DNA from: a virus
IMG/VR virus record: IMGVR_UViG_3300045988_097776
Strand: one strand, 5' to 3'
Length of the DNA stretch: 64,000 bases
The translations under genes and the position numbers were made by a program. The notes beneath the pieces were generated by a model. That model had not been told where the DNA came from, made no database searches, and was given only the letters and a program-made list of their open reading frames with translations. Within the stretch, counting starts at the first letter, position 1. Every line of letters begins with the position of its first letter. Below, one piece after another: positions 5,745-63,276 of the stretch.

Positions 5745-6060
5745 TTTGATTATATTGTACCACACTATCGGGAGTTTGTCAAGAGGTTTTTCAAACTTTT
5801 TTCAAGAGCTTTTGCCCTTTACTTGTTTGCCCTCTCTCGTTCCCCTTATAGTGTAACACACTTTGGAGAGTTTGTCAAGCCCTTTTTTATTCACTTTTCA
5901 AGGTTCCTTGCCTTGTTTTCTGTACTTATTATAGCACACTCACAAGGGCTTGTCAAGAGGTTTTTTGAAAGATTTTTGAAAGTTCGCTGTCGCTGTCTGC
6001 CGTTCGTCTCTCTCACTTTCTGTACTTATTGTACCACACCACAAAGCGGATTTCAATTGT
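5745..6060 (-). promoter_or_regulatory. array of 4 tandem near-consensus sigma70 promoters (TTGACA-17-TACAAT/TATAAT, some with TGn) reading leftward
   Basis: Minus strand: TTGACAaactcccgatagtgtggTACAAT at 5752-5780, TTGACAaactctccaaagtgtgTTACACT near 5850-5878, TTGACAagcccttgtgagtgtgcTATAAT near 5929-5956, and TTGAAAtccgctttgtggtgtggTACAAT at 6029-6057. Confidence 0.65.
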
Positions 6061-6096
6061 GAGATCCTCCAAAAGAACGTGATTTTGGGATAGGGT

Positions 6097-6120
6097 TTTT
6101 GTGCAAAATGTTGCACAAAA
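6097..6120. promoter_or_regulatory. perfect 24-bp palindrome TTTTGTGCAAAA-TG-TTGCACAAAA (operator-like) upstream of the promoter array
   Basis: The left half is the exact reverse complement of the right half. The TTGTGCAA motif recurs near other early promoters. Confidence 0.55.
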
Positions 6121-6159
6121 CGGAATCAAATTTTTTGTGCAACATTTACAAGGAAAAAA

Positions 6160-6200
6160 TCGGGTCGCGCCGCCCATGCGCGACCCGCCAAAATATAAAA
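6160..6200 (-). terminator. rho-independent terminator (minus strand)
   Basis: CGGGTCGCGC-ATGG-GCGGCGCGACCCG followed by a T-run on the minus strand. Confidence 0.6.
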
Positions 6201-6227
6201 CAAAAAAAGAAGGCCGAAGCCCTCTTT

Positions 6228-6512
6228 TTATCCGAAAAGGCAGTTATCTAAAAAGTCGAACAGGTGTTCATCCTCGGCGGGGATGGATACCAGTATATCC
6301 CCGTTTTCATCGGGTTCATCATGGCTCCATCCCATACGCTTGATGATTTCAAGCGCCGTGAAAACGGCATCGGGACAAAGGGAAGAAGTATATACAATTC
6401 TTGTTTGCATATTTAACCCTCTTTCTTTGAGTAGAACTGGTCGGCATAAAACTGCATTTCTTTCTGCGTTACCTTGGAAAGCATGGCCTTGATGGTAAAT
6501 ACATCTGGGCAC
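6228..6512 (-). CDS. hypothetical protein, 94 aa
   Basis: ORF track. Confidence 0.4.
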   Translation of the reverse strand: MPRCIYHQGHAFQGNAERNAVLCRPVLLKERGLNMQTRIVYTSSLCPDAVFTALEIIKRMGWSHDEPDENGDILVSIPAEDEHLFDFLDNCLFG

Positions 6513-6592
6513 GTCCGCTCAAGTAGGAAGCGAATAGCCTTATTCTTTAATCCCTGAAACATTTCTTATTTCTCCTTCTACCGGGCGGGGCA

Positions 6593-7417
6593 TTAAGCCC
6601 CGACCCGGATTGTCGGAATCTGCCGCAAACTTGCGGAAAGCTGACGCTGAAAATCTGTCATGGGCGGAAACTCCCGCTTGTTCTCATACAGGGCCTTTCT
6701 CATGGGCTTATGCTGGCGCATACAGTACCACATGATTTCCGCCTCAATCAGAACATCTTCCAGTCCCGTGTGGCTTTCCTCAAAATCAGTGTTGCCGGAG
6801 ATAAACCGCCACACGATTTCCGCAGTCTTGCGGGGAACGCCATTAGCCTGCACATACCCGTGTTCTTCACAGAATTTCTTATAGGTGGGCATCTGGCAAA
6901 TGACATCTTGCATCATTTTCATAATGTCCCAAATTTCCACGCTGTCAAATGGGAACCAATACCGGAATTTGGAACAAGTGACCCAACGCTGAGTGACCCG
7001 AAGGGCGTTATCATCGAAGCGGGCATTATATGCGGCGACCTCCTTAATGCCGTACCGCTCGATAGTGTCCAGCATGGCCTGACGGATTTCATAGGTAGTA
7101 GCCATCTTGCGACTGCCAGCCCGCAATTCCTCTACATACCGGGGGATTTTCCAGTTATAATAGGCCGTCCGCATTAAATCCCGCTCGTCATTGAAAATAT
7201 CCCGATTTACAAAACTTGCGGTTTCGTAAATATTGCCTTTGGTGTCTACGACCGCCCAGCCGCAGTCATATACCAAAACATTTGACATATCCATACGGAC
7301 GCGCTCTGGAGTAATAATTTCCCCATCTTCCCCAATTTCAGCGGGGACAGTCTCGGTTAATGTGTTGGCGGTTTCTGTATCAACCACCAGCACATAATGT
7401 CGGCGTTTATCAATCAT
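6593..7417 (-). CDS. DEDDh 3-prime to 5-prime exonuclease (DnaQ/RNase T-like)
   Basis: Exo I motif VLVVDTETANT, Exo II YNARFD and Exo III HTGLEDV. Length 274 aa. A consensus promoter (TTGACA-17-TATAAT) lies at 7452-7480. Confidence 0.6.
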   Translation of the reverse strand: MIDKRRHYVLVVDTETANTLTETVPAEIGEDGEIITPERVRMDMSNVLVYDCGWAVVDTKGNIYETASFVNRDIFNDERDLMRTAYYNWKIPRYVEELRAGSRKMATTYEIRQAMLDTIERYGIKEVAAYNARFDDNALRVTQRWVTCSKFRYWFPFDSVEIWDIMKMMQDVICQMPTYKKFCEEHGYVQANGVPRKTAEIVWRFISGNTDFEESHTGLEDVLIEAEIMWYCMRQHKPMRKALYENKREFPPMTDFQRQLSASLRQIPTIRVGA

Positions 7418-7590
7418 AATCTATCAAGTCCTTTCTTCTCTTGGTGGTATCATTATAGCACATTTAAGGCTTGGTGTCAAGAGGGATTTTATATTTTTTT
7501 TCTCCGTTGAAAAAGGCGTCGCGATAACCTCTCTCACAAAAGGGACTCTTTACCCTACTCTGGAGAACTTTTTCCTTTCCTCCTGACATG

Positions 7591-7720
7591 ATAATAATAC
7601 CATAGTTTCAGGATAATTGCAAGATGGCATTTTGCACAAGATTTCTGCTTGAAAATTGTGCAACATTACAACAGAAAAAAATGCGGCCCGCGGCGCTCAA
7701 GCGCGGGCCGCTGATTTTCT
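7591..7720 (-). promoter_or_regulatory. promoter-terminator cassette: TTGCAA-17-TATTAT promoter, TTGCACAA/TTGTGCAA dyad motifs and a GC-rich terminator hairpin
   Basis: About 75 bp are nearly identical to 9041-9120. Hairpin GCGGCCCGCGGCGCTCAAGCGCGGGCCGC. Confidence 0.55.
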
Positions 7721-7756
7721 TTATATAAAAAATTCTCCCATTTAGGGAGGATTTTT

Positions 7757-7993
7757 TTAAAACTCTAAAATTGGTGTTTCATCAGGCAGAGCATCTACGC
7801 TGGTGATGGAGATAGATTTATTGTAATCAGTGGAAATTCCTGTCACTCTCTCAATTTCTTTAGTGGCAATATCATACATAATATCGTTTGCAACTGAAGC
7901 CGGGCCTTTTCTATGAATATCGGCCAGCTGTTGGAAGATAGGATGATCGACCTCTAACTCACGCTGGATAGAAATTGAAATTTTAACTCTCAT
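7757..7993 (-). CDS. hypothetical protein, 78 aa
   Basis: ORF track. Confidence 0.4.
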   Translation of the reverse strand: MRVKISISIQRELEVDHPIFQQLADIHRKGPASVANDIMYDIATKEIERVTGISTDYNKSISITSVDALPDETPILEF

Positions 7994-8025
7994 ATAACTT
8001 TTCTTTCTATTGGGAACGCCTTAAA

Positions 8026-8174
8026 TGGCGTTCCCGATTTTGAAGCACTTGGCCGAAGGCGACCAAAGAGAACCGGCCTTGCGCTTGGCATCAGAACGGG
8101 CACGGTCAACATCCTTACCGACACCCACGAACACATGGCCCGCCGCAGTCTTAAAGTAGAAATTCATCATAGTA
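8026..8174 (-). CDS. hypothetical small GC-rich protein, about 49 aa
   Basis: Manual translation: MMNFYFKTAAGHVFVGVGKDVDRARSDAKRKAGSLWSPSAKCFKIGNAI. Confidence 0.35.
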
Positions 8175-8303
8175 AAGCTTCCTTTCTTTTATGAGGGTTA
8201 TCCCCTCTTGATGATTAAATTATACCACAATGCGGTGAGATTGTCAAGAACTTTTTTACGTATTTTCCAGATATGGGGCGGGGATTTCACCCGCCCCTTT
8301 TAT

Positions 8304-8768
8304 TTAGTCCAGATTGTTGATATATTCAATAATGTTTGTAGTTTGGGGGTCTACGGTATCCCCTAAATGCCAGCCGTTTCTAATTTTGCCGTTATCATCA
8401 AAGAGGATAAACGGCGGTTCATAGAAACTACGGAATACACATTTAGCTTTAGTTGTTCCATACGCCACACAATGGCATTTATGGGCCGGAAATTTATGCC
8501 TTGCAAGCCATTCCTTTTTGGCGGCTGTGACTGCTTTCTTATATTCAGGGGGGCTTTCAGGGGGCAACCATGTAATAACTCGAACCTCCCACCCGTTACT
8601 AATTGCGTTTAGAAGCGCATTTCGGAGGGCGTTCATATCCCACATGGGGGCGGCGTCTCGGAATGGGCTGGGGTCTCCATCGCGGAGTTTTTCAAGCCAG
8701 TTGGGGACTGCGTATAGATCTGCAATTGTCCCGTCCATATCAAAGCAGAGCATTTTTTTAGTTATCAT
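8304..8768 (-). CDS. HAD-superfamily phosphatase (5-prime nucleotidase / deoxyribonucleotidase-like)
   Basis: N-terminal CFDMDGTIAD (the DxDGT motif). Length 154 aa. Consensus promoter at 8791-8819. Confidence 0.55.
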   Translation of the reverse strand: MITKKMLCFDMDGTIADLYAVPNWLEKLRDGDPSPFRDAAPMWDMNALRNALLNAISNGWEVRVITWLPPESPPEYKKAVTAAKKEWLARHKFPAHKCHCVAYGTTKAKCVFRSFYEPPFILFDDNGKIRNGWHLGDTVDPQTTNIIEYINNLD

Positions 8769-8796
8769 ATATATAACCTCCTTTTGTTTTATTATA

Positions 8797-9021
8797 CTAC
8801 CTGTTGCCTATCTTGTCAACAAGTTTTTCAAAGAAATTTTTATGCCGATATACCTTATAAGGCATTGACGTATAATCCACATAAATTAGAGGGTCGCGCA
8901 AAAGAATAGCTTGCATATAGATCCCATAATTCTCTGGGGTGGTAGTACCACCAAATTGGCGGCGGTAGATTTCAGCCACAGTTAAACACTCATTAGGCCG
9001 AATAAACTTTGAAGGTTTCAT
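8797..9021 (-). CDS. hypothetical protein, 74 aa
   Basis: ORF track. Promoter TTGCAA-17-TATTAT at about 9041-9075, a duplicate of the 7600 cassette. Confidence 0.4.
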   Translation of the reverse strand: MKPSKFIRPNECLTVAEIYRRQFGGTTTPENYGIYMQAILLRDPLIYVDYTSMPYKVYRHKNFFEKLVDKIGNR

Positions 9022-9204
9022 TTAGTGTCCCTCCTTCTTTCTGTACTAATAATACCATAATTTAAGGATAATTGCAAGATGACATTTTGCACAAGATTTC
9101 AAGTCAAAAATTGTGCAGAACTTACAAACAAGAAAACTCGGCGCGCTGTGAGCGTCAGCGCGCCGTCGAAATTTTGGTATAAAAAAAGAGGGCCGAAGCC
9201 CTCT

Positions 9205-9684
9205 TTAATTTTCTGCAAATTGAGCTAGAAATTGCGCAGAAAGTCGAACCATATCATGCGCTGATTCTTTATCGTTTTTATAGCAAATAAAGCCGATTAC
9301 CTCACCTTCTGCAATAATAGGAGTAACAAACAACGATTTTCCCTTCCATTCAGTACCCCAATTACGAATATTGAACCATTCATCCGGGGTCTTTGACATT
9401 CCGAAGGGGCGAGGGCCGCACAAAAGACTTGAATTATCAAAAACCGATGCTAAAATGCCGTTAATGCTTAAAACTTTTTGAATATGTGCGGCCTGAGGAG
9501 CAAAAGAAGATAGTAGGGAATATTTCTTGAAAACCACCCCGCCATCTTCAATAAAGATTTCTAGCGGGTCGCCTTCCCGAATATTCATATTCCGACGAAT
9601 TTCCTTAGGAATTACTACCCGGCCGAGATCATCAATGCGCCGCACAATGCCAGTTACTTTCATTTTTTTTATTAGAGAGGGCAA
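9205..9684 (-). CDS. SpoVT/AbrB-family transcriptional regulator (swapped-hairpin N-domain plus GAF-like C-domain)
   Basis: N-terminus MKVTGIVRRIDDLGRVVIPKEIRRNMNIREGDPLEI is the AbrB/MazE/SpoVT signature. Length 159 aa. Terminator at 9170-9205. Confidence 0.7.
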   Translation of the reverse strand: MPSLIKKMKVTGIVRRIDDLGRVVIPKEIRRNMNIREGDPLEIFIEDGGVVFKKYSLLSSFAPQAAHIQKVLSINGILASVFDNSSLLCGPRPFGMSKTPDEWFNIRNWGTEWKGKSLFVTPIIAEGEVIGFICYKNDKESAHDMVRLSAQFLAQFAEN

Positions 9685-9714
9685 GGCTATTGCTTGCCCT
9701 CTCTACCTCCTTCC

Positions 9715-10110
9715 TTAAAACTCCTTGCGCAGTTCCTCAAGCATGGCTGTTAAGGTGTTCATATCTCCACCCATTTCCAATTTGACGCACATGAGCCGGG
9801 TCTGCTCGTTAATCCATGTGTTAATCTCTGCGATTTCATCATCCATTTTTTCCTTGGCCGGAGTATAAATGCCGCAAGTGCAGGTCTGGATGACATTCTC
9901 GCAATATCTGGAAGTCTTATAGCCCTTAGCCTGCATTTCCGCCTGGATAGTATCGCCCAGCTCATTGGCCGACTTGACGATAGCCTCCTTAAAAGCCTCC
10001 AGCGCGTCGAACTCTGGCTGATACCTCTCCCGGATAGCCGCCTCCTTACAGGCAGAAATCTTGCGAACCTCGTCACGAACATATTCTTCAATTCTCTTAG
10101 TAACACGCAT
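9715..10110 (-). CDS. hypothetical protein, 131 aa
   Basis: ORF track. Consensus promoter TTGACA-17-TATACT at 10176-10204 and terminator at 9680-9715. Confidence 0.45.
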   Translation of the reverse strand: MRVTKRIEEYVRDEVRKISACKEAAIRERYQPEFDALEAFKEAIVKSANELGDTIQAEMQAKGYKTSRYCENVIQTCTCGIYTPAKEKMDDEIAEINTWINEQTRLMCVKLEMGGDMNTLTAMLEELRKEF

Positions 10111-10344
10111 TTCTAAAAACTCCCTTTCTGTTTTAATTTGAGAGGTTTTACTCGTTTCCCCTCTTTACATTTAATAGTATAGCAGATTTCGGGAGAAGTG
10201 TCAATCGTCAAAATGCACAACATTTGCAAACATATTTTGTTGAAACTGCTAATCATAGAAAATTCGGATCGCGCCAACCCTGCGCGATCCGCCCAATATT
10301 ATGCAAATAAAAAAGAAGCTCCCGGAAAACCGGGAGCATTTCTT

Positions 10345-10584
10345 TTACATCATAGGGAAATCAATGCCAATTTCGTTAGCTCTGCGGTCAGCCTCTTCGT
10401 CGAAGACCGCCTTCAAAATAGTGGCCGCGTCATCGGGAGTACAGGTATCTTCACGCAGGAACTTCCCCAAAGACTGAACCAAAGCGGAGTCGGCCGAACT
10501 CCGGTCTATCAAACGCATTGCTGTATGAAGAGCAATCAGACTGTCCCTATCTTCCTCGGTCATCTTGGGCATCTTGATAGTCAT
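10345..10584 (-). CDS. hypothetical protein, 79 aa
   Basis: ORF track. Promoter TTGACA-17-TATAAT at 10635-10663. Terminator GCTCCCGG-AAAA-CCGGGAGC at 10318-10345. Confidence 0.45.
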   Translation of the reverse strand: MTIKMPKMTEEDRDSLIALHTAMRLIDRSSADSALVQSLGKFLREDTCTPDDAATILKAVFDEEADRRANEIGIDFPMM

Positions 10585-10838
10585 AACATACTTCCTTTCT
10601 GGTTTTATAGAGTTTTCCTTCTCTTGATGGTATTATTATATCATAAAGGGTTGGATTTGTCAACCCTTTATATCGGAGTATTTATAATATATCCAAACAT
10701 TATAATTTCGGCGGCGAAAAGTATAGCAAGCAGGAAATGGTTTTTTATTATAGCGGTCACATACTGGATAGTCAGGCAAATGGCAAGAACAATTATGATA
10801 AAAGTGGTCATGCTAGTTCCTCCTGCGGTAGAGAGGGA

Positions 10839-11078
10839 TTATACCCTCTCTACCTCGATAATTTCCATGTCGAAATTTTCCCAGCAGGCCCCAAGGAGCA
10901 TATCATGCCGCAGGTCGTTTTCGCTTTCGTAGTCCATATCTTCCAGAATGTCCTGCCAGTTATCGGGATTATATTGCTTTTTCAGCCAGTCCCAACCGGC
11001 GCCACGAGCCAGCCGCAGGTCATCAGATACACAGATAATATTCTCACGATTATCAGCCATAACCACATAGCTTTTCAT
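10839..11078 (-). CDS. hypothetical acidic protein, 79 aa
   Basis: ORF track. Promoter TTGACT-17-TATACT near 11121-11160. Confidence 0.4.
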   Translation of the reverse strand: MKSYVVMADNRENIICVSDDLRLARGAGWDWLKKQYNPDNWQDILEDMDYESENDLRHDMLLGACWENFDMEIIEVERV

Positions 11079-11324
11079 TTTCTTTTACTCCCTTTCTTGA
11101 GGGCTTTTGTTCTCCCCTCTTGATGGTTTAAGTATATCAGAATGAGAGAGAAAAGTCAAGCGATTTTGGGAAATTTCTTTCCGTCAATTTCACCAATAAA
11201 TCGAGCCAAAATTTGTGCAAATTACCTCTTGACAAAAAATTCCGGCCGCTGCGCTCATGCGCGGCCGGCTGAACAATATATTTTGAATTGGAAAAGAAAT
11301 TCCTCCCATTTTGGGAGGAAAATC

Positions 11325-11462
11325 TCAATCTACATATTCTCGATTTAAAACTTTTACAACCTCTTCAGGTTTACGTCGAGACCGGAAAAGAGCATCTTCA
11401 TAGGAATAACCAGAGATATTGTCGGTCGAGCCATTTTCAAGCAAAATCTCAAATTCATACAT
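11325..11462 (-). CDS. hypothetical small protein, about 45 aa (internal start of the listed ORF)
   Basis: A promoter -10 and TSS fall inside the listed ORF. AAGGAAG RBS before the internal ATG (MYEFEILLENG...). Confidence 0.3.
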   Translation of the reverse strand: MYEFEILLENGSTDNISGYSYEDALFRSRRKPEEVVKVLNREYVD

Positions 11463-11518
11463 ATCTCTCAACTTCCTTTCTTTTGATAACTTAATTTTAA
11501 CATAAGAATTTCGGGAAG

Positions 11519-11755
11519 TCAATCGGTACTTTCAACAATTTTCATTCCATTTGCTTGTATAATTCGCATAGCTTCTTCAAGAGAAGTATTGTCAACGGAG
11601 CCACAGTCGATACAAATATATTTTCTGCCATCCTTTACCATAGTAGTGAAATAATATTCTTGACCAGAAACAAGGCCCATCTACTCTCGTAGTCTTACGG
11701 GAATCATGATGCGCCCACTTGAATCCAATTTCCTTGAGAAAGTAGTTTCTTGCAT
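11519..11755 (-). CDS. AbrB/MazE-family DNA-binding protein, 78 aa, with 1 in-frame TAG
   Basis: Manual translation: MQETTFSRKLDSSGRIMIPVRLRE[Q]MGLVSGQEYYFTTMVKDGRKYICIDCGSVDNTSLEEAMRIIQANGMKIVESTD. The GRIMIP motif is the swapped-hairpin signature. Confidence 0.55.
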
Positions 11756-11843
11756 TTTGCTAAATAAATTCTAGTGACCTAGGTTCGTGCGAAAAACGAC
11801 TCCATCACGGGAATCGCCGATTTGTAACAATCGGAGGGAATAA

Positions 11844-11960
11844 TTACCACTCGCAAGGCATTTTCTGGCAGAACTGAGCCATAGGACAATTCTTACAAGA
11901 ATCCTAGTTCAAACAGAACTCCAGAATGACCGCAAGAGCTTTCAGCACTTCTAAGGTCAT
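11844..11960 (-). CDS. small Cys-rich protein, 38 aa, 1 in-frame TAG
   Basis: AAGGAG RBS. Product MTLEVLKALAVILEFCLN[Q]DSCKNCPMAQFCQKMPCEW. Confidence 0.35.
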
Positions 11961-12135
11961 TAGAAAACTCCTTTCTTTATTTTTCTATATATATTATAAA
12001 ATATTTTTTTAAAAAAAGCAAGGACTGACTTATGCCAGCTCCAGCCTCTGTAACCAGATAAGGTGATATTTCCCCAGTCTTGCCAAAACTGTTCCGTATC
12101 CCTTATTAGTCCAAACAGTGGAACCAATAGGATAT

Positions 12136-12387
12136 TCACGCGGAAGTCTCTCGATAGTCATTGATAATCCCCTTTTCTGTAAAGAATCCGACAAGATGTT
12201 CTGCTGCACTGGACTTATGCGGAGTTATCAACAACCACGCACCGCGAAGATTATCAATAGTCGATAAAGACCAGTCCGCGCCCATCTGACTAATTAAGCA
12301 CTCGAAACTTGCTCGATCCTCAAGAGAGTTAAACGAAACTACATATTTTCCCATGCGGAAATCGACCTCCATAGAATTTTTTATCAT
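12136..12387 (-). CDS. hypothetical protein, 83 aa; a coupled 43-aa ORF follows at 12004-12135
   Basis: ORF track. ATGA start/stop overlap at 12133-12138 suggests translational coupling with the downstream small ORF MTIERLPREYPIGSTVWTNKGYGTVLARLGKYHLIWLQRLELA. Confidence 0.4.
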   Translation of the reverse strand: MIKNSMEVDFRMGKYVVSFNSLEDRASFECLISQMGADWSLSTIDNLRGAWLLITPHKSSAAEHLVGFFTEKGIINDYRETSA

Positions 12388-12426
12388 GGGGAGTGGAAGT
12401 CATAGACCTCCACTCCCGCAGGTTTC

Positions 12427-12666
12427 TTATGCGTTAATGTAGATATTAACGCCACCTTCTTCTCTCATTTCAATCTCAGTCACCTGCTTCTTGAACAGGG
12501 CGCTGAGGTCATCGCCATAAAAGTCACCGCCGAGCTGGAGCTTCCATTCCTTGTCAAACCGGAAATGTGCGCCGGTATTGCTGTCGATTACCTGAATAGC
12601 CGCATCCTCTTCCAGACAGAAAGAGTATTGCCGGAACAAAATCACAACGTCTTTGAAGCACACCAT
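12427..12666 (-). CDS. hypothetical protein, 79 aa
   Basis: ORF track. Promoter TTGACA-17-TATATT at about 12705-12745. Confidence 0.4.
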   Translation of the reverse strand: MVCFKDVVILFRQYSFCLEEDAAIQVIDSNTGAHFRFDKEWKLQLGGDFYGDDLSALFKKQVTEIEMREEGGVNIYINA

Positions 12667-12922
12667 TTCTTTTACTTCCTTTCAAATTCTTTTTGTGGTC
12701 TGTCTCTCTGGACAAGTATAATATACCATACCCACAAAGGAATGTCAAGCGATTTCGGGAGAAAAATTCTCGGCAGATTGCACAAACTTTTGGCCATATA
12801 ATTGTTGAAACTGCCGAACAAACAAAAATTCGGGCCGCGGCGCACGCTGGCGGCCCGGCGAAAAGTCAATATGGGAAAGTGCACAAAAATATCCGGCAAT
12901 CTTTGTGTAGATTACCGGATAG

Positions 12923-13066
12923 AATATTAAAACATCACAGTAAAGAAGTTATACTCACTATGCTGTGGATTTGGATAGCTGTTATCTGCTACTATGTCAG
13001 CCCAGCTCAAAGCAATCCAGAGAAGGAGAGCGGCGCAAAGGCCGCCTCCTATATACCGTAGCACTC
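12923..13066 (-). CDS. small membrane protein, about 47 aa
   Basis: Manual translation: MRVLRYIGGGLCAALLLWIALSWADIVADNSYPNPQHSEYNFFTVMF. Start overlaps the stop of the upstream gene. Confidence 0.3.
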
Positions 13067-13453
13067 TCATACCGCAGGCTCCTTCCCCAGAAGGTCATAC
13101 CGTCCAGGGATTTCGGCATTAAGCCTATCCCATTCTTTGGCAGTTACCCTGTCATACTCATTATAATAGTTATCCCGAATGATATAAAGCTGTTCTGTGG
13201 TGTCCTTATCCAGAGCGGCCTTATACTCGTCAAGAGAGGCAGGACGAGTGTGAAGCTTGCTGTTGATATACCGTGCATTGATAAAGGCCCAATGTGGCAT
13301 GACGGCCTTAGAGATAGCATTAAAAGCGTCTAAGTCAAGGATGATACCATCATCCACAGCGGCCGCCTTCACATTCATGGAGTAACGGAGAACACGCACG
13401 AACTCAGGCTTATTAAAGGTGGGATTGGTGTAATACTTGATGAAGTTAGACAT
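13067..13453 (-). CDS. hypothetical protein, 128 aa
   Basis: ORF track; AAGGAT RBS. Confidence 0.45.
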   Translation of the reverse strand: MSNFIKYYTNPTFNKPEFVRVLRYSMNVKAAAVDDGIILDLDAFNAISKAVMPHWAFINARYINSKLHTRPASLDEYKAALDKDTTEQLYIIRDNYYNEYDRVTAKEWDRLNAEIPGRYDLLGKEPAV

Positions 13454-13508
13454 ATCTTTTATCCTTTCTCCCCGTATAGCCGTTAGGTCAGCTTCTTGTG
13501 GTATATGG

Positions 13509-13772
13509 TTACTTGATAGCTTCGCCGGTAGACAGGTCTACAATCCAATAGTCAGGATTGACAAGCTCATGGTCTACTCTCCATCTTGCGTGTGCAAAAG
13601 TAGACGGCTCATAGTATCGCATTTTGTCACCCACTAAAACCTGCAACTGATACCTCATAATACCGCCTTCTTTCTTTTGATTATTATAACCCTGCCTTGC
13701 CTTGGGTTTTGCAAGGCAGGGTTTATAAACTACTGCTGATTGAGTTCTTTTTGCTGGTCTTTCGTTGCCCAA
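13509..13772 (-). CDS. hypothetical protein, 87 aa
   Basis: ORF track. Confidence 0.35.
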   Translation of the reverse strand: MGNERPAKRTQSAVVYKPCLAKPKARQGYNNQKKEGGIMRYQLQVLVGDKMRYYEPSTFAHARWRVDHELVNPDYWIVDLSTGEAIK

Positions 13773-14170
13773 TCAAGAGAGGTTCTGACCGTCGGACGCT
13801 TGCGGTATTGCTCCGCCTCTGCCTTTGTGCCGCCTTTAGCTAAAGCGTAGGCTTTCCAGTCTATCGCTCCTTTAGCGGTAGTCTCTTTATAGACCACCGC
13901 ATGAGCGGCGCCCTTTATCTGGACTGTGCCGTACAGATAAGAGGTCTTATCCGTGGTCTTGAACTCTTTCCTCAAACGGGTGAAAAGCTCTTTCGCTTTG
14001 GCCTTGGCCGCTTTCTCTGCAACCTCTGCCGCCGCTACTGCTTGCTTAGCGGCTAGGTACTCCATGATGACCTTCCTATCATCATTGGCAAAATCAATCT
14101 TTTTCATACTCTTTTGACTCCCTTTCTTTTTGTGGTGTGATTCTCTTTTGTTCTGTCTGTATTGTATCAA
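13730..14170 (-). CDS. hypothetical protein, 146 aa (coiled-coil N-terminus; possibly a Gam-like nuclease inhibitor)
   Basis: ORF track. Consensus promoter TTGACA-17-TACAAT at about 14150-14200; a second TTGACA-17-TAAACT at about 14270-14300. Terminator at 13690-13730. Confidence 0.4.
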   Translation of the reverse strand: MIQYRQNKRESHHKKKGSQKSMKKIDFANDDRKVIMEYLAAKQAVAAAEVAEKAAKAKAKELFTRLRKEFKTTDKTSYLYGTVQIKGAAHAVVYKETTAKGAIDWKAYALAKGGTKAEAEQYRKRPTVRTSLDWATKDQQKELNQQ

Positions 14171-14592
14171 GTCTTTTAAGACTTGTCAATACTTTTTTTG
14201 AAAATTTTTAATTTTCAAGGTACATTGAGTTTTGCCCTGTCCTCTACTGGACAAGTCCAGTTTACACCCGTTTGCCCTGTTTGTCAATAGTTTTTTGAAA
14301 TTTCTTTCTCTCTCTTTTGCACAAAATAAACATTGTTCAACTGTGCAATTTGCATAAATCCTTTACGCGCGCGTATTCCTTTAGGGCGTGGCTTTTTACT
14401 TTCATACTTTAATGAGTGAAAGAGGCTGACTACACTTCAGCACTTTACCATGTGAAAGGGGAGGGTGTATTTTGGGAAAAACTGGAAATTTTTTCGCAAA
14501 TTTGTTCTGCCACGCCATTTCAAAATCTAAATCGTACTTTCAATCTCAATAACGAAAAAAAGATGAAAGGCTAAACTTTTAACCTTTCATCT

Positions 14593-14715
14593 TTTCTCCA
14601 CAACTAGGGCAAAAATTATATTCTCCTGCTTCATCATAGGTAACTAATAAATCGCCATCTTCCTTATAACACGAATGAGTGAATCCGCAATTTAAACACA
14701 AAGAATATAAGGCTC
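14593..14715 (-). CDS. small zinc-ribbon protein, about 40 aa (start uncertain)
   Basis: Product ...CLNCGFTHSCYKEDGDLLVTYDEAGEYNFCPSCGEKMKG contains CxxC...CxxC. A strong terminator hairpin follows on the minus strand at 14560-14600. Confidence 0.3.
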
Positions 14716-14759
14716 CATTCCCCTTAAATTTTATAATAAGCCATTTTCCATTCTATCCC

Positions 14760-15197
14760 TTAATGGTATAATTGATATTTTCTGCCAATCTTATCAATCT
14801 CCTCAGCTTCCATTGGCCTAAATCCAATACAAGTGAGAGTCCCTTCAGGACTCTCTTTTTCCAGCTCTGTCCTGCAAGCATCGTAAATCAAAAAGTAATC
14901 TTTATACTCCTCCATACCGAGCTCTTTAGCTGCTTCGACCGCCCGCAATAAATCATTCTTATTTTTCGCTCGACAAACAACTTTAGTTTCTGCTTCTATT
15001 ATCCAATTATGGTATAAATCTGTATCGAGACTTACATTCACATGATACATAATACCATCTCTTTCCCTAACTACTTCTTTGCTTCCCCAAAGTATTTTCT
15101 CTAAAAGAAAAGCAATAGAAGCATGGGAAACTTGTGCGGCCAGCTTACCTGGAGACATATTTAAATCTTTTCTAGCTATAATTAACTGTTTATACAT
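14760..15197 (-). CDS. peptidyl-tRNA hydrolase, PTH2 family
   Basis: IIARKDLNMSPGKLAAQVSHASIAF matches the PTH2 R-x-D-L-x-M-x-x-G-K-x-A-A-Q-x-x-H-A core. The C-terminal half aligns with the human PTRH2 fold (…KVV..A.....L......A...G…). Confidence 0.8.
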   Translation of the reverse strand: MYKQLIIARKDLNMSPGKLAAQVSHASIAFLLEKILWGSKEVVRERDGIMYHVNVSLDTDLYHNWIIEAETKVVCRAKNKNDLLRAVEAAKELGMEEYKDYFLIYDACRTELEKESPEGTLTCIGFRPMEAEEIDKIGRKYQLYH

Positions 15198-15946
15198 TCT
15201 TTACCTGCTTTCAAAAATGCCCTAAAATTCTGGGAGTTGCGGTCAGGAATTGCAAAATAAATATTTGGAATATTATAATTGCGGGCTGCGCCTATGAGCA
15301 AGGTTGCGACCGTATACGGATCTTGCATAAAAACTCCACAACCCCAGGCTCCCGCGATTAGATTTTCCACACCGTTTTCCTCAGCAATCTGATACATAAA
15401 GTGAATTCGATCTTCAAGAACTCTATCATTCTCGCTCTTACTCACACTCTGGTATCTATGCGCCGTTCGGAAATTCGGGGCCGCACAAGTTATAATATCT
15501 GCTTCCTTTTGTTTGTCATTGCGCTCGAATACTACGCTAGGAGAATACAGCGCTCTATTTAAATATAAAGCCTTATTTAATCTCTGTCGATTCCATGCGT
15601 AATACGTTTCATCAAAAGCAAGAAGGATAGGGTAAAGATTGGATTCATGACAAAGAGCCTCTTCCTGCGCGGGACTACCTCCTAGAAAAAATCCACCCGG
15701 GTTTTTATAACTGGCGTAGTTAAGAATTGCTGTTCTACCATTGTTAGATAAATTGAATAGGCAAGATACACTATCCATATCTGTTAGAGTAAAAGCTGGT
15801 TTCTGATTGCCGGATTCATGCTGTGTAAAAGAATCTGGACTATATACATATGTGCGCTCGATAGATAATTTAGTGTTTGCGGCAAGTCTAGTTTTAATAT
15901 CTTCATAATGCGCTCGTGCCTTGATTGCGCGCTCTTGTTTTGTCAT
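15182..15946 (-). CDS. macrodomain-fold poly(ADP-ribose) glycohydrolase-like protein (bacterial PARG/DUF2263 family)
   Basis: NPGGFFLGGSPAQEEALC matches the bacterial PARG signature G-G-x(6-8)-Q-E-E. Length 254 aa. AAAGGAGG RBS. Overlaps the PTH2 start, so the two probably form an operon. Confidence 0.55.
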   Translation of the reverse strand: MTKQERAIKARAHYEDIKTRLAANTKLSIERTYVYSPDSFTQHESGNQKPAFTLTDMDSVSCLFNLSNNGRTAILNYASYKNPGGFFLGGSPAQEEALCHESNLYPILLAFDETYYAWNRQRLNKALYLNRALYSPSVVFERNDKQKEADIITCAAPNFRTAHRYQSVSKSENDRVLEDRIHFMYQIAEENGVENLIAGAWGCGVFMQDPYTVATLLIGAARNYNIPNIYFAIPDRNSQNFRAFLKAGKECINS

Positions 15947-16145
15947 CGCGGCCTCCTTTTATAAAAATGCCGTTGGGCAAAATTAAATAATTGTCTTATT
16001 TTATTTTTCAAATAAAGTGTGTTGAGTTTTTAATTCCTCGATCTTCTACTTTAACTCTTTGTTTTCTTTTATTACTTTTGCATATTCGCATGAATCATCG
16101 CATCTAATTGGATCATACTATTGATGCAATCTAAGATAACAATAA

Positions 16146-16505
16146 TCAATGCATGGGTTCATATTTACACCCCTTTATTCTACAATCTAGTAAACACTGT
16201 CCTGTAGCTCCATCACAGGGAATTGCATCAGGGTAATCCTCAAAATAAGACGAAGCTAATAGGACTTCATACCCGAGTTCTCGCAATATTCTTTCTGCGA
16301 TATATCTATTCCTCAGCTTTACCCATTCTTCTCTATTTATTTTTGTTTCTCTGTATATTTCTCTGGATTTCTCCATATCTACTGTTATGCTGCCATCAAT
16401 ATTAGTCTTAAATGTTGAATCCTGTGTACGATAAAATTCTCGAAAAGGATTTTCAATATGAAGAACCTCTCTAGCATAATTATCAAAATCTTCTGAGAAT
16501 TTCAT
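16146..16505 (-). CDS. hypothetical protein, about 119 aa
   Basis: ORF track; the likely start ATG at 16503-16505 overlaps the FolD stop (TAATG). Confidence 0.4.
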   Translation of the reverse strand: MKFSEDFDNYAREVLHIENPFREFYRTQDSTFKTNIDGSITVDMEKSREIYRETKINREEWVKLRNRYIAERILRELGYEVLLASSYFEDYPDAIPCDGATGQCLLDCRIKGCKYEPMH

Positions 16506-17296
16506 TATCTTCGCGCCTGTTTCGCTAACTATAAGCAATTTTTCATCAACCCCAATCTAGTCAATAATCCCACCCCTCCGGGCACAGGAGTTGACCACAC
16601 TTCATTTCTCTTTGCAATATTTTCAAGTTCAACAAAATCGCCTTGAATAAAATTCGCCTAATTTCTACGAATACCAACATCAACAACAATAGCGTGAGGG
16701 CAAGCCTCTCTTGTCAAAGTAAAATCTCCAACTGCGGATACTACTAAATCTGCTATTCTTGCTAAATAAAGCTTCGCATTTACATTTGTTTTACTGTGAC
16801 AGATAGATACAGTCATATTTCTCGCCAACAACTCTTTCGCCATTGGCTTACCAACTATATTACTTCTACCTAATATTAAAGCACTTTTACCTTCATACTT
16901 AAAACCACAGTCATCAAGATAGTCTACTATTCCTCTTACCGTTGCCGGTAAAACAAGAGTAGAAGAAGTTAAACCGTCGCAGTCTTTTATCGTAGGAATT
17001 ACATCAATAGAAAAAGAACTCAATGAATCTCTTAGTGGCATTTGTGCTATAATACAATCAGTATCTATACTATTTATGTAATTATTTAAATCTGCGGGAG
17101 TCCAGTGTTCTGGAACTTTAATCACGCTTACTGGCCATCCTAATTCATTAAAGTCGTCTACTTTTTTCTATATATAAATCTAATTTCCGGCATCCCCGTT
17201 AGTTGCATCAATTATGGTCAATGATGGCTTGACATCGGACTGCCGCAATTCATCTTTCTATTGTTTAAAATATTCTTTTATGTTAATCTATTGCAT
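16505..17296 (-). CDS. folD: bifunctional methylenetetrahydrofolate dehydrogenase/cyclohydrolase FolD, 263 aa, 3 in-frame TAG
   Basis: The listed 155-aa ORF ends at a TAG. Reading through gives ...GRSNIVGKPMAKELL...VVDVGI...PVPGGVGLLT, the FolD C-domain. Upstream through two more TAGs gives the N-domain MQQINIKEYFKQQKDELRQSDVKPSLTIIDATNGDAGNQIYIQKK. Confidence 0.8.
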
Positions 17297-17621
17297 CTGG
17301 TTCTAGCCCCCATGGATCATCAGTATCATAATCAATCATATCATAGAATGATATTTTGTTATTAGGCGTTATTTCTAAAACCTAATGTGGGATACAACAT
17401 ATTTCATAATCAGAATCTCTATCTAAATTATATGAAGCATAAATATGCAAAGCCGTTGGTCTTGCATTATTGATATTTTGAACATCCCATAAGTCAACAG
17501 TGTTTTTATGTCCAAGTATGTCTGTTAGAACTTCTGGCTATACTGCTATGCTTATAATTAAAATGTTAAAGTAATACTATGCTCGTTTTGGTAATTCAGA
17601 ATAGGGCGTATCGAAAAACAT
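17283..17621 (-). CDS. hypothetical protein, 112 aa, 3 in-frame TAG; first gene of the leftward early transcript
   Basis: GGAGG RBS 10 nt before the ATG (cat at 17619-17621 on plus). Reading through TAG gives one ORF ending at TAA 17283-17285 and overlapping the folD start. Confidence 0.45.
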
Positions 17622-17736
17622 GATGGCGAAGCCTCCTATCTTATTTCTATAATTATATTATATCATTTTTAAATAAATTGGTCAAATTTTATTATTTATT
17701 TGTAAAGTTTTGTCAAATATAATAGGAGATGATAGA

Positions 17737-18450
17737 ATGAAGAAAACACATTGTATTTATATGCATAAAAACAAGATTAATGGGAAAATTTATGTTGGTC
17801 AAACATTTTAGGATAATCCTAATGCTAGATGGCAAAACGGGCATGGATATATAAAACAGCCAAAGTTTTTTTCAGATATTATAAAATACGGATGGATAAA
17901 TTTTGAACATATTATTTTAGAAGAAAACTTAACGCAATAGGAGGCGAATGAAAGAGAAAATTTTTGGATTCAATATTTTGATAGTTGTAAAAATGGGTAT
18001 AATACAATTTCAAAGAATAATAGATCAGAGGTATAGAAAAAAACAACAAATAGCCTTATTGTATGCTTAAATACAAATAAATCATATAAAACATTAAAAG
18101 AAGCGTCTTTGGATACCGGAGTTGATCCATCTGCAATTTCAAGATGTTATGGAGGATAGCGTAAAAGTGCAGGAATAATAAATGGTGTTCCTGGGTTTTG
18201 GATTTTAACAACATCGGATAAAAGCCTTATTAATAAAATAAAAAATAATTATAATGATGCTATAAGAAAGATAGTTTGTGTTGAGACTTCTAGAATTTTT
18301 AATTCTTTAGATGAGGTAATAGAATATTGTGGATTGCCAGTATCTTCTTCAAATAGAGCAAGATTAAAAAGTATTTTAAAATATAAGACAAATTCTTCTT
18401 TTGGGCGAGATAAAGAGTTAAATATAAAATTACATTGGAGTTATCTATAA
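17737..18450 (+). mobile_element. GIY-YIG homing endonuclease with two NUMOD-like HTH modules, 237 aa, 4 in-frame TAG
   Basis: N-terminus MKKTHCIYMHKNKINGKIYVGQTF[Q]DNPNARWQNGHGY (GIY...YIG...R...H...E). C-terminal repeats ...LKEASLDTGVDPSAISRCYGG[Q]RKSAGIINGVPGFWI... AGGAG RBS. Confidence 0.7.
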
Positions 18451-18521
18451 TTTGTAATAAGATTTGACAATCTAGTTTTTTTTTGTTATTATATGAGTAT
18501 AAAAAGGAGATGAACCAGTAT

Positions 18522-20748: not shown

Positions 20749-22494
20749 ATGGCGCTAAAAGATTTATTAAACCTCTCGAACAATAATAAAAAAATTGGAC
20801 TCTCAGAAGAAAGAGTTCGAGCTATAATTCCAGTTGCAAGATAGTATGTAGCATTTTGGAGAGAGTATCCAGATATGTTTATTGATTTCTTGTAGACTGG
20901 TGGAGATGAAACTAGGAAAAAAGAAATTAACTTTTATTTTTACTAGAGAGTTTTCTTGCGGGCCGCCATGCGATATAAGTATGTATACATGGTATTCCCC
21001 CGTGCTTATTCTAAATCATTTCTTTCTGTAATGGTGCTTATGTGTAGATGTATTTTATATCCTGGATGTAAGTTATTCATTACTTCTGGGGGAAAAGAAC
21101 AAGCTGCGGGAATTGCTAAAGAAAAAGTCTAGGAAATATGTAATGCAATCCCTGCACTCCAAAGAGAAATTGATTGGAGACGAGGCAAGACGCAGGAAGG
21201 AAAAGATTATTGTAAATATATCTTCAAAAACGGTTCCTACTTTGATAACGTAGCAGCTAGAGAATCCTCTCGTGGTAAACGTAGACATGGAGGACTTATT
21301 GAGGAGTGTGTCGGCGTAGATGGAGATATTCTAAACGAAGTTTTAATTCCTTTGATGAACGTTGATAGAAGATGTTTAGATGGCTCTGTTCATGAAGAAG
21401 AAACACTTAATAAATCCTAGATTTATGTTACTACTGCGGGATGGAAGAATACGTTCCCCTACAATAAACTTATTACTCTCCTTGTGCGCATGATATTAGA
21501 ACCAGAAAAGAGTATTGTTATGGGCGGAACATGGAGAATTCCTGTGTTAGTAGGATTGCAATCCCGCAATTTCGTATAGGAACTAAAATAGGACGGTACT
21601 TTTAATGAAGCTTCATTCGATAGAGAGTATGAATCTAAGTGGAGTGGAACTGTTGAAGATGCTTTCTTTAATGGAGATGCTTTTGATAGAAGTAGAAAAC
21701 TCCTTTAGCCTGAATATGAATCGTCTGGAAGATCTTCTGCACAGGCTTATTATGTTCTTTCTGTTGATGTAGGTAGAAAGAAATGTCAATCTGTTGTTTG
21801 TGTCTTTAAGGTAACTCCTTAGTCACAAGGACCTGCTATAAAGTCTTTGGTAAATATATATACTATGGACGATGAACATTTTGAAGATTAGGCAATTAAG
21901 TTAAAGAGATTATATTATAATTATAAGGCTAAGATTATTGTAATCGACGGTAATGGCCTTGGCGCCGGATTGATGGATTATATGGTTAAACCTTAGATAG
22001 TACCTGATACCAATGAAGTTTTTCCTGACTTTGGTGTAGCTAATGATGAAGATGGTGAGTATAAGCGGTTTAGGACAGAAAACACAGAATATGATGCCAT
22101 CTATGAAATTAAGGCTAACGCTCCTATTAATACCGAGGCGCATAGTAATGTTTAGACACAATTAAGAGCGGGAAAACTTAGATTTTTGATTGATGAAAAA
22201 GTTGCAAGAAATAAATTGCTTGGTACTAAAAAAGGTTAGGCTATGAAACCAGAAGAACGGGCAGAATATTTAAAACCGTTCACTTTAACTTCTATATTAA
22301 GAGAAGAAATGCTGAATTTGCGAGAAGAAAATGAAGGCGTGAATATTATTTTGAAACAAGCAAATAAATCCGTGCCTAAAGATAAATTCTCTGCGCTTGA
22401 ATATGGGCTGTATTATATTAAATAGGAAGAAGATAGTAAACGCAAGCGTAAAAGTAGAAGATTTTCAGACTTTATGTTTATGAGCGAGGTGTGA
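20749..22494 (+). CDS. terL: terminase large subunit, about 581 aa, about 14 in-frame TAG
   Basis: AAGGAGG RBS. The read-through product carries ...FYFY[Q]RVFLRAAMRYKYVYMVFPRAYSKSFLSVMVLM... and ...IVIDGNGLGAGLMDY..., typical of PBSX/Terminase_6-type large terminases. Sits upstream of the portal. Confidence 0.6.
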
Positions 22495-25780: not shown

Positions 25781-26470
25781 ATGGCTAAGAGTTCTAAAAG
25801 ATTAGGTAATGCTACTTTTGTCCAATATGGATATGGTCAAGTAGAACCAAACCATCTTTCCGCTCCAAGAAATGGTCAGGTATATGCCCAGCTTCCTGCT
25901 GCTAGCACAATCACCCTTCTTGAGAATGGTCAATTCGTAAAGTATGACTATGCTAAGGGTGTATGTGATTTTAGCACAGAGGCTACTTCTGGTGCTTGGA
26001 TGATGGTATTCAATGAGGTAAAAATTTATAGAGATCGTGAGACTGATGCCGATTTTGCTATGATTAAAGATAACTATAACGCTCGTGTTTATAGCCCAAT
26101 CGGACAGACCGTTTCTACACTCGCTACCATTAATGACTATACTGGTGAAGCTGTACGTGAAGGTAGTAACGTAGCATATAAAAAGAATATGGAAACATTT
26201 ACTTATCCAGCTTTGATGCCAGAAGGAACTAAAATGGTTCCACGTGTAATTAAGATTAGTATTGGTGATATTTGGACAACTAATACTATTAAGGCTGATG
26301 CCGGTTCACTTGCTGTTGGAGATCGTTTAAAGATTGGTACTGATGGTTATTTAACCGAGGATACTGAATCTTCTGCTAAGGGTGGAGATTTAGATCCTAT
26401 CTTTACAGTAGTAAAAGTATACACCATGCCCGATCTTCAACCCGGTGTAAAAGTACAGCGTGTAGGTTAA
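25781..26470 (+). CDS. capsid-associated protein (decoration or minor capsid protein), 229 aa, no TAG
   Basis: Lies between the scaffold and the major capsid gene. Ends with TAA and contains no TAG. Confidence 0.35.
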   Translation: MAKSSKRLGNATFVQYGYGQVEPNHLSAPRNGQVYAQLPAASTITLLENGQFVKYDYAKGVCDFSTEATSGAWMMVFNEVKIYRDRETDADFAMIKDNYNARVYSPIGQTVSTLATINDYTGEAVREGSNVAYKKNMETFTYPALMPEGTKMVPRVIKISIGDIWTTNTIKADAGSLAVGDRLKIGTDGYLTEDTESSAKGGDLDPIFTVVKVYTMPDLQPGVKVQRVG

Positions 26471-26489
26471 TTGGAAGGAGTGAAGAAGA

Positions 26490-27542
26490 ATGTTAGATAA
26501 AGCTAATTTACTTAGTTTAATGAAGACTGTCGCCAATGCAAATCCTTCTGGTACCTATAGCTATCAAGGAGAATCCTTTAGCTACGACGCTTTGAACACC
26601 ACTTTGCGCAATGAGTTAAATGAGCTTGTTGGCACAGATGAACTTTATAGAGAAAATAAACATACTCTATTCTCTTTAATTGAGCAAACTATGGATGAAG
26701 TTGTTCCTAATCGTTTACTCAATTCTTATGGCAATTTTGCCGAGATTAGAACTTTCGGACAGGGAGATAAACCTGTATTTACTCGTAGAACTGGACTTAC
26801 CCGTGCTAAGCAATTCATCACTCGTGTGGGACTTGCTGGCGTATACGAGACCTTTAAGCTCGGTTCTGAGAGCTTCGAAGTTGGTACAAGTGCTATCGGC
26901 GGAGCTGCTCGTATCGGATTCGAGGAGTTCCTCGACGGAAGAGTAAACTTCGCAGAACTTACTCAGATTGTAACTGAGGGTATGCAAGAGCTTATTTATA
27001 GAGAGATTGCTCAAGCTCTTATGGGTTCTATTAATCAGCTTCCCGCGGCAAACCGTTGTGCCGTTGCTGGTTTTGATGAAGCTACTATGGATTATCTTGT
27101 AAATACTGCTAGTGCTTATGGTCAGCCCACTATTTACTGTACTCGTGAGTTTGCAGTAAAGATGATTCCAGACAACGAGGCTTGGATTTCTGATAACATG
27201 AGAGATCAGTATTGGGGAACTGGATACCTTGCTAACTACAAGGGAACTAGAGTGGTAATTCTACCTCAAACCCTTGAGGATGAGACTAACTCTAGAAAGA
27301 TGATTGACCCTGGTTATGCTTGGGTTATCCCCGGTGGAGCAGATACTCGTCCTGTTAAAGTTGCTTTTGAGGGTACTACTCACGTGCGCGAGCGCGATGA
27401 TAACGACGACTGGTCTCGTGATATTCAGGTTTACCGCAAGGTCGGAGTTGGCGTAATGATGGCAAATAACATTTTCTCTTACGTTGATACTGAACTTCAA
27501 GGTGAGCTTGATAATACTAACCCAAATCCAAATAATGGTTAA
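26490..27542 (+). CDS. major capsid protein, 350 aa, no TAG
   Basis: Size, position after the scaffold, a strong terminator directly downstream, and complete absence of TAG codons (highly expressed). Confidence 0.55.
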   Translation: MLDKANLLSLMKTVANANPSGTYSYQGESFSYDALNTTLRNELNELVGTDELYRENKHTLFSLIEQTMDEVVPNRLLNSYGNFAEIRTFGQGDKPVFTRRTGLTRAKQFITRVGLAGVYETFKLGSESFEVGTSAIGGAARIGFEEFLDGRVNFAELTQIVTEGMQELIYREIAQALMGSINQLPAANRCAVAGFDEATMDYLVNTASAYGQPTIYCTREFAVKMIPDNEAWISDNMRDQYWGTGYLANYKGTRVVILPQTLEDETNSRKMIDPGYAWVIPGGADTRPVKVAFEGTTHVRERDDNDDWSRDIQVYRKVGVGVMMANNIFSYVDTELQGELDNTNPNPNNG

Positions 27543-27544
27543 TT

Positions 27545-27580
27545 AAAAGGGGATAGGGAAATATCCCTATCCCCTTTATT
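27545..27580 (+). terminator. rho-independent terminator after the capsid gene
   Basis: AGGGGATAGGGA-AAT-ATCCCTATCCCCT followed by a T-run. Confidence 0.7.
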
Positions 27581-27603
27581 TATTGAGAAAAAGGAGATAT
27601 AAT

Positions 27604-63264: not shown

Positions 63265-63276
63265 GAGGTGACCACC

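Follow-up and report, generated by a model that had tools for sequence, protein, structure and literature searches.

A phage-borne FolD-family gene that is complete only when its in-frame TAG codons are read as sense

The DNA analysed here is a stretch of 64,000 nucleotides from a virus (IMG/VR record IMGVR_UViG_3300045988_097776), referred to at its full length as the window. On its minus strand, between two small open reading frames (ORFs) that it overlaps, lies a gene of the FolD family of one-carbon metabolism. Combining the domain, structure and conservation data with the distribution of TAG codons in the window and in related phages, we consider it highly probable that this gene encodes a functional phage FolD written in the phage's own genetic code, in which TAG is a sense codon that most likely specifies Gln (code 15), and that its need for TAG decoding follows from recoding of the genome as a whole. 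The FolD coding sequence, its TAG codons and the large terminase gene of the window are as follows:

16505..17296, minus strand: FolD-family coding sequence, 263 sense codons, with ATG at 17294-17296 and TAA at 16505-16507
17288..17290, minus strand: TAG at FolD codon 3; CAA or CAG (Gln) in relatives
17258..17260, minus strand: TAG at FolD codon 13; mostly GAG (Glu) in relatives
17180..17182, minus strand: TAG at FolD codon 39; corresponds to the conserved Gln of bacterial A-S-Q-x-Y-x-x-x-K; 91% of the phage family have Gln here
17168..17170, minus strand: TAG at FolD codon 43, within the Y41-x-x-x-K45 catalytic motif; Arg or Lys in relatives
16658..16660, minus strand: TAG at FolD codon 213, in a variable loop in the interval from VDVGI to GDF
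16529..16531, minus strand: TAG at FolD codon 256, in the C-terminal helix; Asp, Glu or Gln in relatives
20749..22494, plus strand: large terminase, with 14 in-frame TAGs

The FolD frame comprises a catalytic domain (residues 5-107, approximately) and an NAD(P)-binding domain (residues 112-261, approximately), lacks internal TAA and TGA codons, and contains six in-frame TAGs where a preliminary description of the window, made from the sequence alone, had counted three. As that description had it, the gene is complete in its two domains only when the TAGs are read through: both Pfam domains were recovered in this way, and the three motifs that it had quoted (GRSNIVGKPMAKELL, VVDVGI and PVPGGVG) were all found in the translation. 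Under the standard code, the largest piece of the gene is a 155-residue ORF (16658-17125), and the plus strand across the interval holds only short ORFs of at most 60 amino acids. The overlap of FolD with both of its neighbours was likewise borne out: the upstream ORF (17283-17621) extends 14 nt into FolD, and the FolD stop codon and the ATG of the downstream ORF (16146-16505) overlap by one base in the sequence TAATG. Both overlaps are also present in relatives, and FolD appears to be translationally coupled to both small neighbours.

For the protein searches, TAG was translated as Gln. The catalytic and the NAD(P)-binding domains named in the preliminary description are both present, with PF00763 matching residues 5-107 (34.4 bits versus a cut-off of 32.8; 3e-08) and PF02882 matching residues 112-261 (123 bits versus a cut-off of 27; 9e-36). 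PHROG 7320 ('tetrahydrofolate dehydrogenase and cyclohydrolase') matches at 2.6e-43, and the best solved FolD, that of Campylobacter (3p2o), aligns over the full length at 3e-30. An AlphaFold model was built on P0001, a protein 99% identical to that of the window and differing from it at 3 residues. The model has a pLDDT of 95.5 and a pTM of 0.92, and the top matches to it in a Foldseek search of the PDB are all FolD, MTHFD1 or MTHFD2, with template modelling (TM) scores of 0.80-0.88, the best being human MTHFD1 and Escherichia coli FolD (0.85-0.88).

Mapped onto the human enzyme, residues Y41, K45, Q85, D107, R144 and S168 of the phage protein correspond to Y52, K56, Q100, D125, R173 and S197, of which we take the first four to be the active-site residues of the dehydrogenase/cyclohydrolase and the last two to be contacts to NADP(H); the PGGVG motif is kept as P239-G243. 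Among 101 family members Y41 is conserved in 100% and K45, Q85 and D107 each in 95%, while R144, S168 and P239-G243 reach at least 98%. In the alignment with bacterial FolD that had been proposed as a check, the catalytic Lys and Asp are kept as Lys45 and Asp107 and no catalytic residue has been lost. The ratio of nonsynonymous to synonymous substitution rates (dN/dS) of FolD between lineages, TAG-bearing ones included, is 0.05-0.31. In total, these data suggest that the enzyme is a 5,10-methylene-tetrahydrofolate (THF) dehydrogenase/5,10-methenyl-THF cyclohydrolase (EC 1.5.1.5 and 3.5.4.9), probably NADP-dependent. Judged from its sequence, it is a divergent member of the FolD family and not an equivalog of any cellular lineage.

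The TAG codons of FolD are paralleled throughout the window. When TAG is read as sense, ORFs of 150 codons or more cover 0.97 of the window instead of 0.33, and an ORF of 2,904 codons appears; reading TGA as sense has little effect. From position 13,000 onward, 32 of the 40 genes of at least 100 amino acids contain TAGs, and the portal gene has 10 of them in frame. A single ORF of 2,899 codons (34878-43577) has 103 and probably encodes a tail or tape-measure-type protein; the contig of a 163.6-kb IMG/VR relative stops near this giant ORF. Compared with four standard-code phages, the TAGs at terminase positions 66 and 381 align with Gln in all four and that at position 224 in three; three further positions are Gln in some standard-code relatives and the rest are occupied by polar residues. 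At other TAGs the aligned residue is Glu, Asp, Lys or Asn. Because several TAGs of the terminase and those at FolD codons 3 and 39 align with Gln, we regard Gln as the best reading, i.e. TAG probably specifies Gln as in code 15.

Several genes of the window are free of TAG, namely those in 25781-28140 (the probable YonB-like major capsid gene and two neighbours), in 31285-32679 (a 464-amino-acid virion structural protein) and in 34237-34767 (a 176-amino-acid protein), and the genes around them use TAG at 40-79% of Gln positions. The relatives examined likewise lack TAG in the capsid gene and in its neighbour of 226-229 amino acids, the one exception being a single TAG in the capsid gene of L008. 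This pattern suggests that the late genes with the highest expression avoid TAG. It is already established that gut phages recode TAG, that such recoding is linked to late genes and that it leads to mis-annotation (bioRxiv 10.1101/2021.08.26.457843; PMC10607447; PMC9523058). A sister lineage, the FolD of which is 64% identical (L316, L322 and L325), carries 25-27 tRNA genes including tRNA-Gln(UUG) and tRNA-Gln(CUG), and the array in L316 and L320 has a phage-borne tmRNA as well, with the tag DNDYFENYLAA or DNDYFENYFAA.

The preliminary description went on to call FolD an auxiliary metabolic gene that is itself gated by the recoding. This holds insofar as FolD needs TAG decoding in the window: because codon 3 is a TAG, no useful product would be made before TAG is decoded, a dependence common to most genes of the phage. 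The data do not point to a device specific to FolD. Six of the 12 presumed Gln codons of FolD are TAG, a share of 0.50 compared with a mean of 0.47 for the window. The number of TAGs in the gene is six in the window and in a 97%-identical IMG/VR relative, four in the sister lineage, two in one lineage, one in one locus and none in at least 19 of 28 close loci. Lineages with a TAG-free FolD include some in which the terminase is complete only under TAG-as-sense and packaging genes have TAGs; moreover, the TAG positions in FolD differ among sub-lineages. Since FolD is without TAG in most recoded relatives, a dedicated gate is unsupported, and the average share, the TAG-free relatives and the unconserved positions together imply that the TAGs are recent, and they look like the outcome of drift under a tolerant code. 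Thus, the TAG dependence of FolD is recent and generic, a by-product of genome-wide recoding and not a FolD-specific switch.

FolD had been described as uncommon in phages, and for deposited genomes this is correct, with matches in 53 of 50,697 records, although the gene has precedents there. In the protein database, at least 120 clusters of FolD relatives of about 260 residues were found at 47-99% identity, many of them on contigs of 50-150 kb, and the family comprises more than 100 clusters at 90% identity. In IMG/VR, 159 stretches match two peptide patterns, about 28 of which are the close family. Many gut phage contigs of 80-165 kb carry the gene at a fixed position behind a conserved promoter. 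In a neighbour-joining tree the close phage family is monophyletic on a long stem, and cellular FolDs of the Bacilli type, 36-41% identical, form its sister group. The tree is a crude one with sampling biased by the peptide search patterns. The phage proteins, as these comparisons place them, are a phage-specific FolD family of about 260 residues.

Beside the large terminase, the window encodes a portal protein, a probable capsid protein of the YonB type and further virion proteins. The terminase is 48-51% identical to the terminases of Enterococcus phages VRE9_4, H1, EF1 and EF5, Geobacillus virus E3 and an Alicyclobacillus phage, and 35% identical to YonF of Brevibacillus phage Sundance. Pfam matches to YonB, YonD_N and YonG_N were found on orthologues in 98%-identical and more distant relatives. 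By its proteins, then, the window comes from a relative of SPbeta and Geobacillus E3 in which TAG is recoded. A nucleotide search with positions 10-30 kb of the window against deposited phages gave no match, and the relatives of the phage are mosaic.

The surroundings of FolD contain the following features:

17657..17685, minus strand: promoter-like site of the sigma-70/sigma-A type, TTGACC, 17 nt, TG-n-TATAAT (11 of 12 matches, extended -10)
17283..17621, minus strand: upstream ORF of 112 amino acids, with 3 TAGs; first gene of the leftward operon; no family match
16146..16505, minus strand: downstream ORF of 119 amino acids, TAG-free, with a Cys-rich C-terminus; no family match
15182..15946, minus strand: microbial-type poly-ADP-ribose glycohydrolase-like gene (PARG), TAG-free, in the leftward array
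14760..15197, minus strand: PTH2-family peptidyl-tRNA hydrolase (phrog_1866), TAG-free, syntenic with FolD in relatives
17737..18450, plus strand: GIY-YIG homing endonuclease, with 4 TAGs, between the FolD operon and a sigma-like gene

FolD comes second in a long leftward array of genes, which begins beside the packaging and structural module at a conserved promoter of the host (sigma-A-like) type. The promoter-like site is followed by an AGGAGG ribosome-binding site and is kept upstream of the same small ORF in six relatives. The overall count of such sites in the promoter scan was no better than in shuffled sequence, and the weight of this one 11/12 site lies in its position and conservation. 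These features suggest that the FolD operon is transcribed by unmodified host RNA polymerase. Neither a THF riboswitch nor any other Rfam family was detected in the window. The order of sigma-like gene, divergent promoter region, small ORF, FolD, small ORF, PARG and PTH2 is kept in relatives down to 56% FolD identity. The IMG/VR relative with 97% identity lacks the stretch 17687-18456, which contains the GIY-YIG gene, and this gene is therefore a recent mobile insertion. The PTH2/PARG stretch (14590-16126), in turn, is missing from the 98.5%-identical L001 and syntenic with FolD in others, and in one relative SIR2 replaces PARG. In P0003 and P0004, which are 69-72% identical to the FolD of the window, the protein is about 24 residues longer and has a Cys-rich end (…C-x-x-x-Q-C-N-x-x-C-L-I-x-G-C-K) resembling the C-terminus of the 119-amino-acid ORF (…P-C-D-G-A-T-G-Q-C-L-L-D-C-R-I-K-G-C-K). 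The likeness suggests a fusion or deletion that joined FolD and the downstream gene.

We suggest that in the infected cell FolD would interconvert 5,10-methylene-, 5,10-methenyl- and 10-formyl-THF, and that the supply of one-carbon units would in that way be matched to the nucleotide demand of the phage: methylene-THF could be used for thymidylate (dTMP), and 10-formyl-THF for purines and possibly for formylmethionyl-tRNA. What we infer is in which direction and to what end the one-carbon units flow, when the gene is expressed, and that the residue inserted at TAG is Gln. In this model, FolD would act together with host folate enzymes and with the nucleotide enzymes encoded in the flanks of close relatives.

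These flanks, i.e. about 38 kb to the left of the window (from the 163.6-kb IMG/VR relative, read at coordinates 91-164 kb) and about 20 kb to the right (from two other relatives), were searched for partners together with the window itself. They encode NrdD, NrdG, a formate/nitrite-transporter-like protein, dUTPase and guanylate kinase as well as a complete set of replication proteins (GyrB/GyrA, LigA, DnaB, primase and Pol III alpha). In L326 (17923-20162) and L331 (9512-12488), about 8-10 kb to the right of the window end, a short protein of the formate/nitrite transporter family adjoins NrdG/NrdD (class III ribonucleotide reductase), with dUTPase and RuvC nearby. This type of reductase can use formate as reductant, and the arrangement hints at a formate theme in a phage that encodes FolD. 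A 291-residue protein of L111 was considered as a ThyX-like enzyme, for which there is no support: neither Pfam nor the PDB gave a match, and the RHR motif is missing.

About 2-3 kb to the left of window position 1, L103 (13225-14397) encodes a 390-amino-acid homologue of adenylosuccinate synthetase (PF00709, PHROG 1211). The label of PHROG 1211 would make it a PurZ involved in 2-aminoadenine DNA. We rejected this assignment, since the Asp of the PurA-type GDEGKG motif is kept and the protein matches PurA structures far better than PurZ 6fm1; PurZ has a specific Ser23 in its base pocket (PMC8342488, PMC12884076). By its motif and structural matches the L103 enzyme is probably PurA-like, and it would be a further partner of FolD.

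The TAGs may affect the timing of FolD in this sub-lineage. They could even be a selected translational gate, such that the operon is transcribed early from the host-type promoter and FolD is made only after the switch to TAG decoding, timed to DNA synthesis or the late phase. The consensus-like promoter conserved upstream of the operon, the TAGs at codons 3 and 13, which leave no useful product without suppression, the absence of TAGs from the genes further down the array (PARG, PTH2 and the 119-amino-acid ORF) and the published model in which recoding delays late genes (bioRxiv 10.1101/2021.08.26.457843) would all accord with such a gate. We nevertheless think it rather unlikely, because the share of TAG in FolD equals that of a window in which most genes have TAGs, the close loci without TAG include TAG-recoded lineages, the positions are unconserved between sub-lineages, and the pattern fits neutral drift from CAR or GAG to TAG once TAG was readable. 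A more elaborate version is, in our estimate, decidedly unlikely: in this sub-lineage, recoding would lately have spread from late genes to the first genes of an early-promoter operon with the codon-3 TAG as timer of FolD, TAG would be decoded without a recognisable suppressor tRNA, and deoxynucleotide supply would be centred on formate, with the transporter placed by the class III ribonucleotide reductase, host formate-THF ligase forming 10-formyl-THF, and FolD working reductively to yield methylene-THF for dTMP.

Several observations weigh against a functional, bifunctional FolD decoded with Gln. The NCBIfam matches listed (25 of 30) are all to FolD models, and the best of them reaches 139.6 bits versus a cut-off of 355; the PF00763 score is barely over its threshold (34.4 versus 32.8). 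At two of the TAG positions in FolD, relatives have Glu or Asp. ARAGORN and Rfam found no tRNA in the window, hence no TAG suppressor; no suppressor tRNA was found in the relatives' flanks read, and the array of 25-27 tRNAs in the sister lineage has no CUA anticodon. This lineage still bears TAGs in FolD and in structural genes. Neither ThyA and DHFR (tblastn with VRE9_4 proteins) nor the ThyX motif was detected in the window or in the relatives' flanks read, and for this reason the link to dTMP rests on host enzymes; the preliminary description had suggested looking for thyA, thyX or dfr elsewhere in the genome. The NCBIfam scores below cut-off and the marginal PF00763 score make an altered specificity conceivable, and the protein might be a FolD-fold enzyme with a changed job: dehydrogenase-only, NAD-dependent or acting on another substrate, e.g. 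in a DNA-modification pathway. Such a change would be in keeping with the distance from every NCBIfam equivalog cut-off, the long stem that sets the family apart from cellular FolDs, the nearest of which are Bacilli proteins at 36-41% identity, a length about 20 residues below that of bacterial FolD and the weak score of the N-terminal domain. All residues that define the two activities and NADP binding are kept, at 95% or more within the family, however, and the model superposes over its full length on bifunctional enzymes; in monofunctional relatives, for instance yeast Mtd1, the Lys/Gln pair has been lost. We therefore consider a changed job improbable. That the TAGs are genuine stops in a decaying pseudogene, a piece of host DNA or a mis-assembly is effectively refuted. 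The standard code does split the gene, and GenBank has just a 155-residue fragment of it (DAO08472.1), but (i) the frame is broken by TAG alone and never by TAA or TGA, (ii) the six TAGs are identical in 97-98% identical genomes from other samples, (iii) dN/dS is well below 1, (iv) the essential terminase and portal genes show the same TAG pattern, (v) FolD sits within conserved phage synteny, and (vi) the 263-residue read-through form is found on many contigs.

FolD and nucleotide genes are combined in a similar way in the Enterococcus phages EF1, EF5, H1 and VRE9_1 to VRE9_4 (134-142 kb), which have an annotated PHROG 7320 FolD and a terminase about 50% identical to that of the window. In VRE9_4, FolD lies in a nucleotide block with nrdD, nrdG, thyA and dfr, near phrog_1866 (PTH2-like), which is near FolD in the window as well. 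The Enterococcus phages use the standard code and have thyA and dfr beside FolD, whereas neither gene was found in the window or in the relatives' flanks read. Their FolD is about 32% identical to that of the window and the most distant from it in the tree and may, for these reasons, be a separate acquisition. Compared with the FolDs of E. coli (1b0a/5o22) and Campylobacter (3p2o) and human MTHFD1 (1a4i), the phage protein has in common the two-domain fold, the Y-x-x-x-K motif, the Gln, the Asp, the Arg/Ser contacts to NADP and PGGVG; it differs in being 29-34% identical and about 20 residues shorter, and in that PGGVG is followed by GLLT in place of GPMT. GLLT is also found in FolDs of Bacilli.

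The distribution of TAG in the window resembles that in the code-15 gut phages (crAss-like phages, Lak, the 'gemstone' clades and Phass-1), in which packaging and structural genes contain in-frame TAGs, some genes have none, and the TAGs align with Gln of standard-code homologues. The terminase of Phass-1 is 44% identical to that of the window, and no FolD match was found in Phass-1; Phass-1 carries suppressor tRNA-CTA genes, whereas the window and the tRNA array of the sister lineage showed none. The FolD of Lak phages is about 31% identical to that of the window.

A GenBank entry, DAO08472.1 ('MAG TPA: 5,10-methylene-tetrahydropholate dehydrogenase [Caudoviricetes sp.]'), is identical to the 155-residue ORF at 16658-17125, and its sequence was found on 107 contigs of up to 165 kb. 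Translated with table 11, the entry is without the N-terminal 58 residues, which include the catalytic Tyr and Lys, and without the C-terminal 50, which include PGGVG. The public entry is thus a 155-residue stump because it was translated in the standard code, and surveys that ignore code 15 will therefore undercount or mislabel auxiliary metabolic genes of recoded phages; most genes of this abundant gut phage lineage will likewise be cut short in standard-code annotation. K01491 (FolD) is among the frequent auxiliary genes of gut viruses (PMC11938785). Phage FolD and TAG recoding were each already known, and the gene in the window is a further example that leaves the knowledge of FolD or of recoding itself unchanged. 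The analysis adds a well-conserved, phage-specific FolD family to the folate and nucleotide genes of large Firmicutes-type gut phages, and it offers a natural experiment on the spread of TAG, which is absent from FolD in most lineages and is then found at one to two, four and six positions in a few lineages, that of the window included.

Beyond the FolD locus, the region 4000-14000 has a G+C content of 0.41-0.47 compared with about 0.33-0.35 in most of the rest, with few convincing long ORFs and few TAGs. Its small genes include two AbrB/MazE-like regulators (9205-9663 and 11519-11755). The region is phage DNA, given that it is collinear with phage relatives, and is perhaps an early or accessory region.

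Near the right end, a segment of 1.15 kb (62377-63522) takes in most of a 329-amino-acid fibre-like gene and the first part of the gene after it. Viral contigs of 14-56 kb that are otherwise unrelated share it at 94-95% identity. The protein encoded at 62275-63264 matches only unrelated small phages that have this segment, and that encoded at 63277-63954 has no match on the contig of the 163.6-kb IMG/VR relative. The near-identity is a sign of a recent exchange of a receptor-binding module. To the left of this segment lies a complete diversity-generating retroelement (57959-61988, minus strand) with the following parts:

57959-59176, minus strand: reverse transcriptase, RVT_1
59483-59585, minus strand: template repeat
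59616-60110, minus strand: small gene, possibly accessory, with no Pfam match
60192-61988, minus strand: target gene, Big_3 and DUF6273
60206-60308, minus strand: variable repeat, at the 3' end of the target gene

All 18 mismatches between the template and the variable repeat are at template adenines (18/18).

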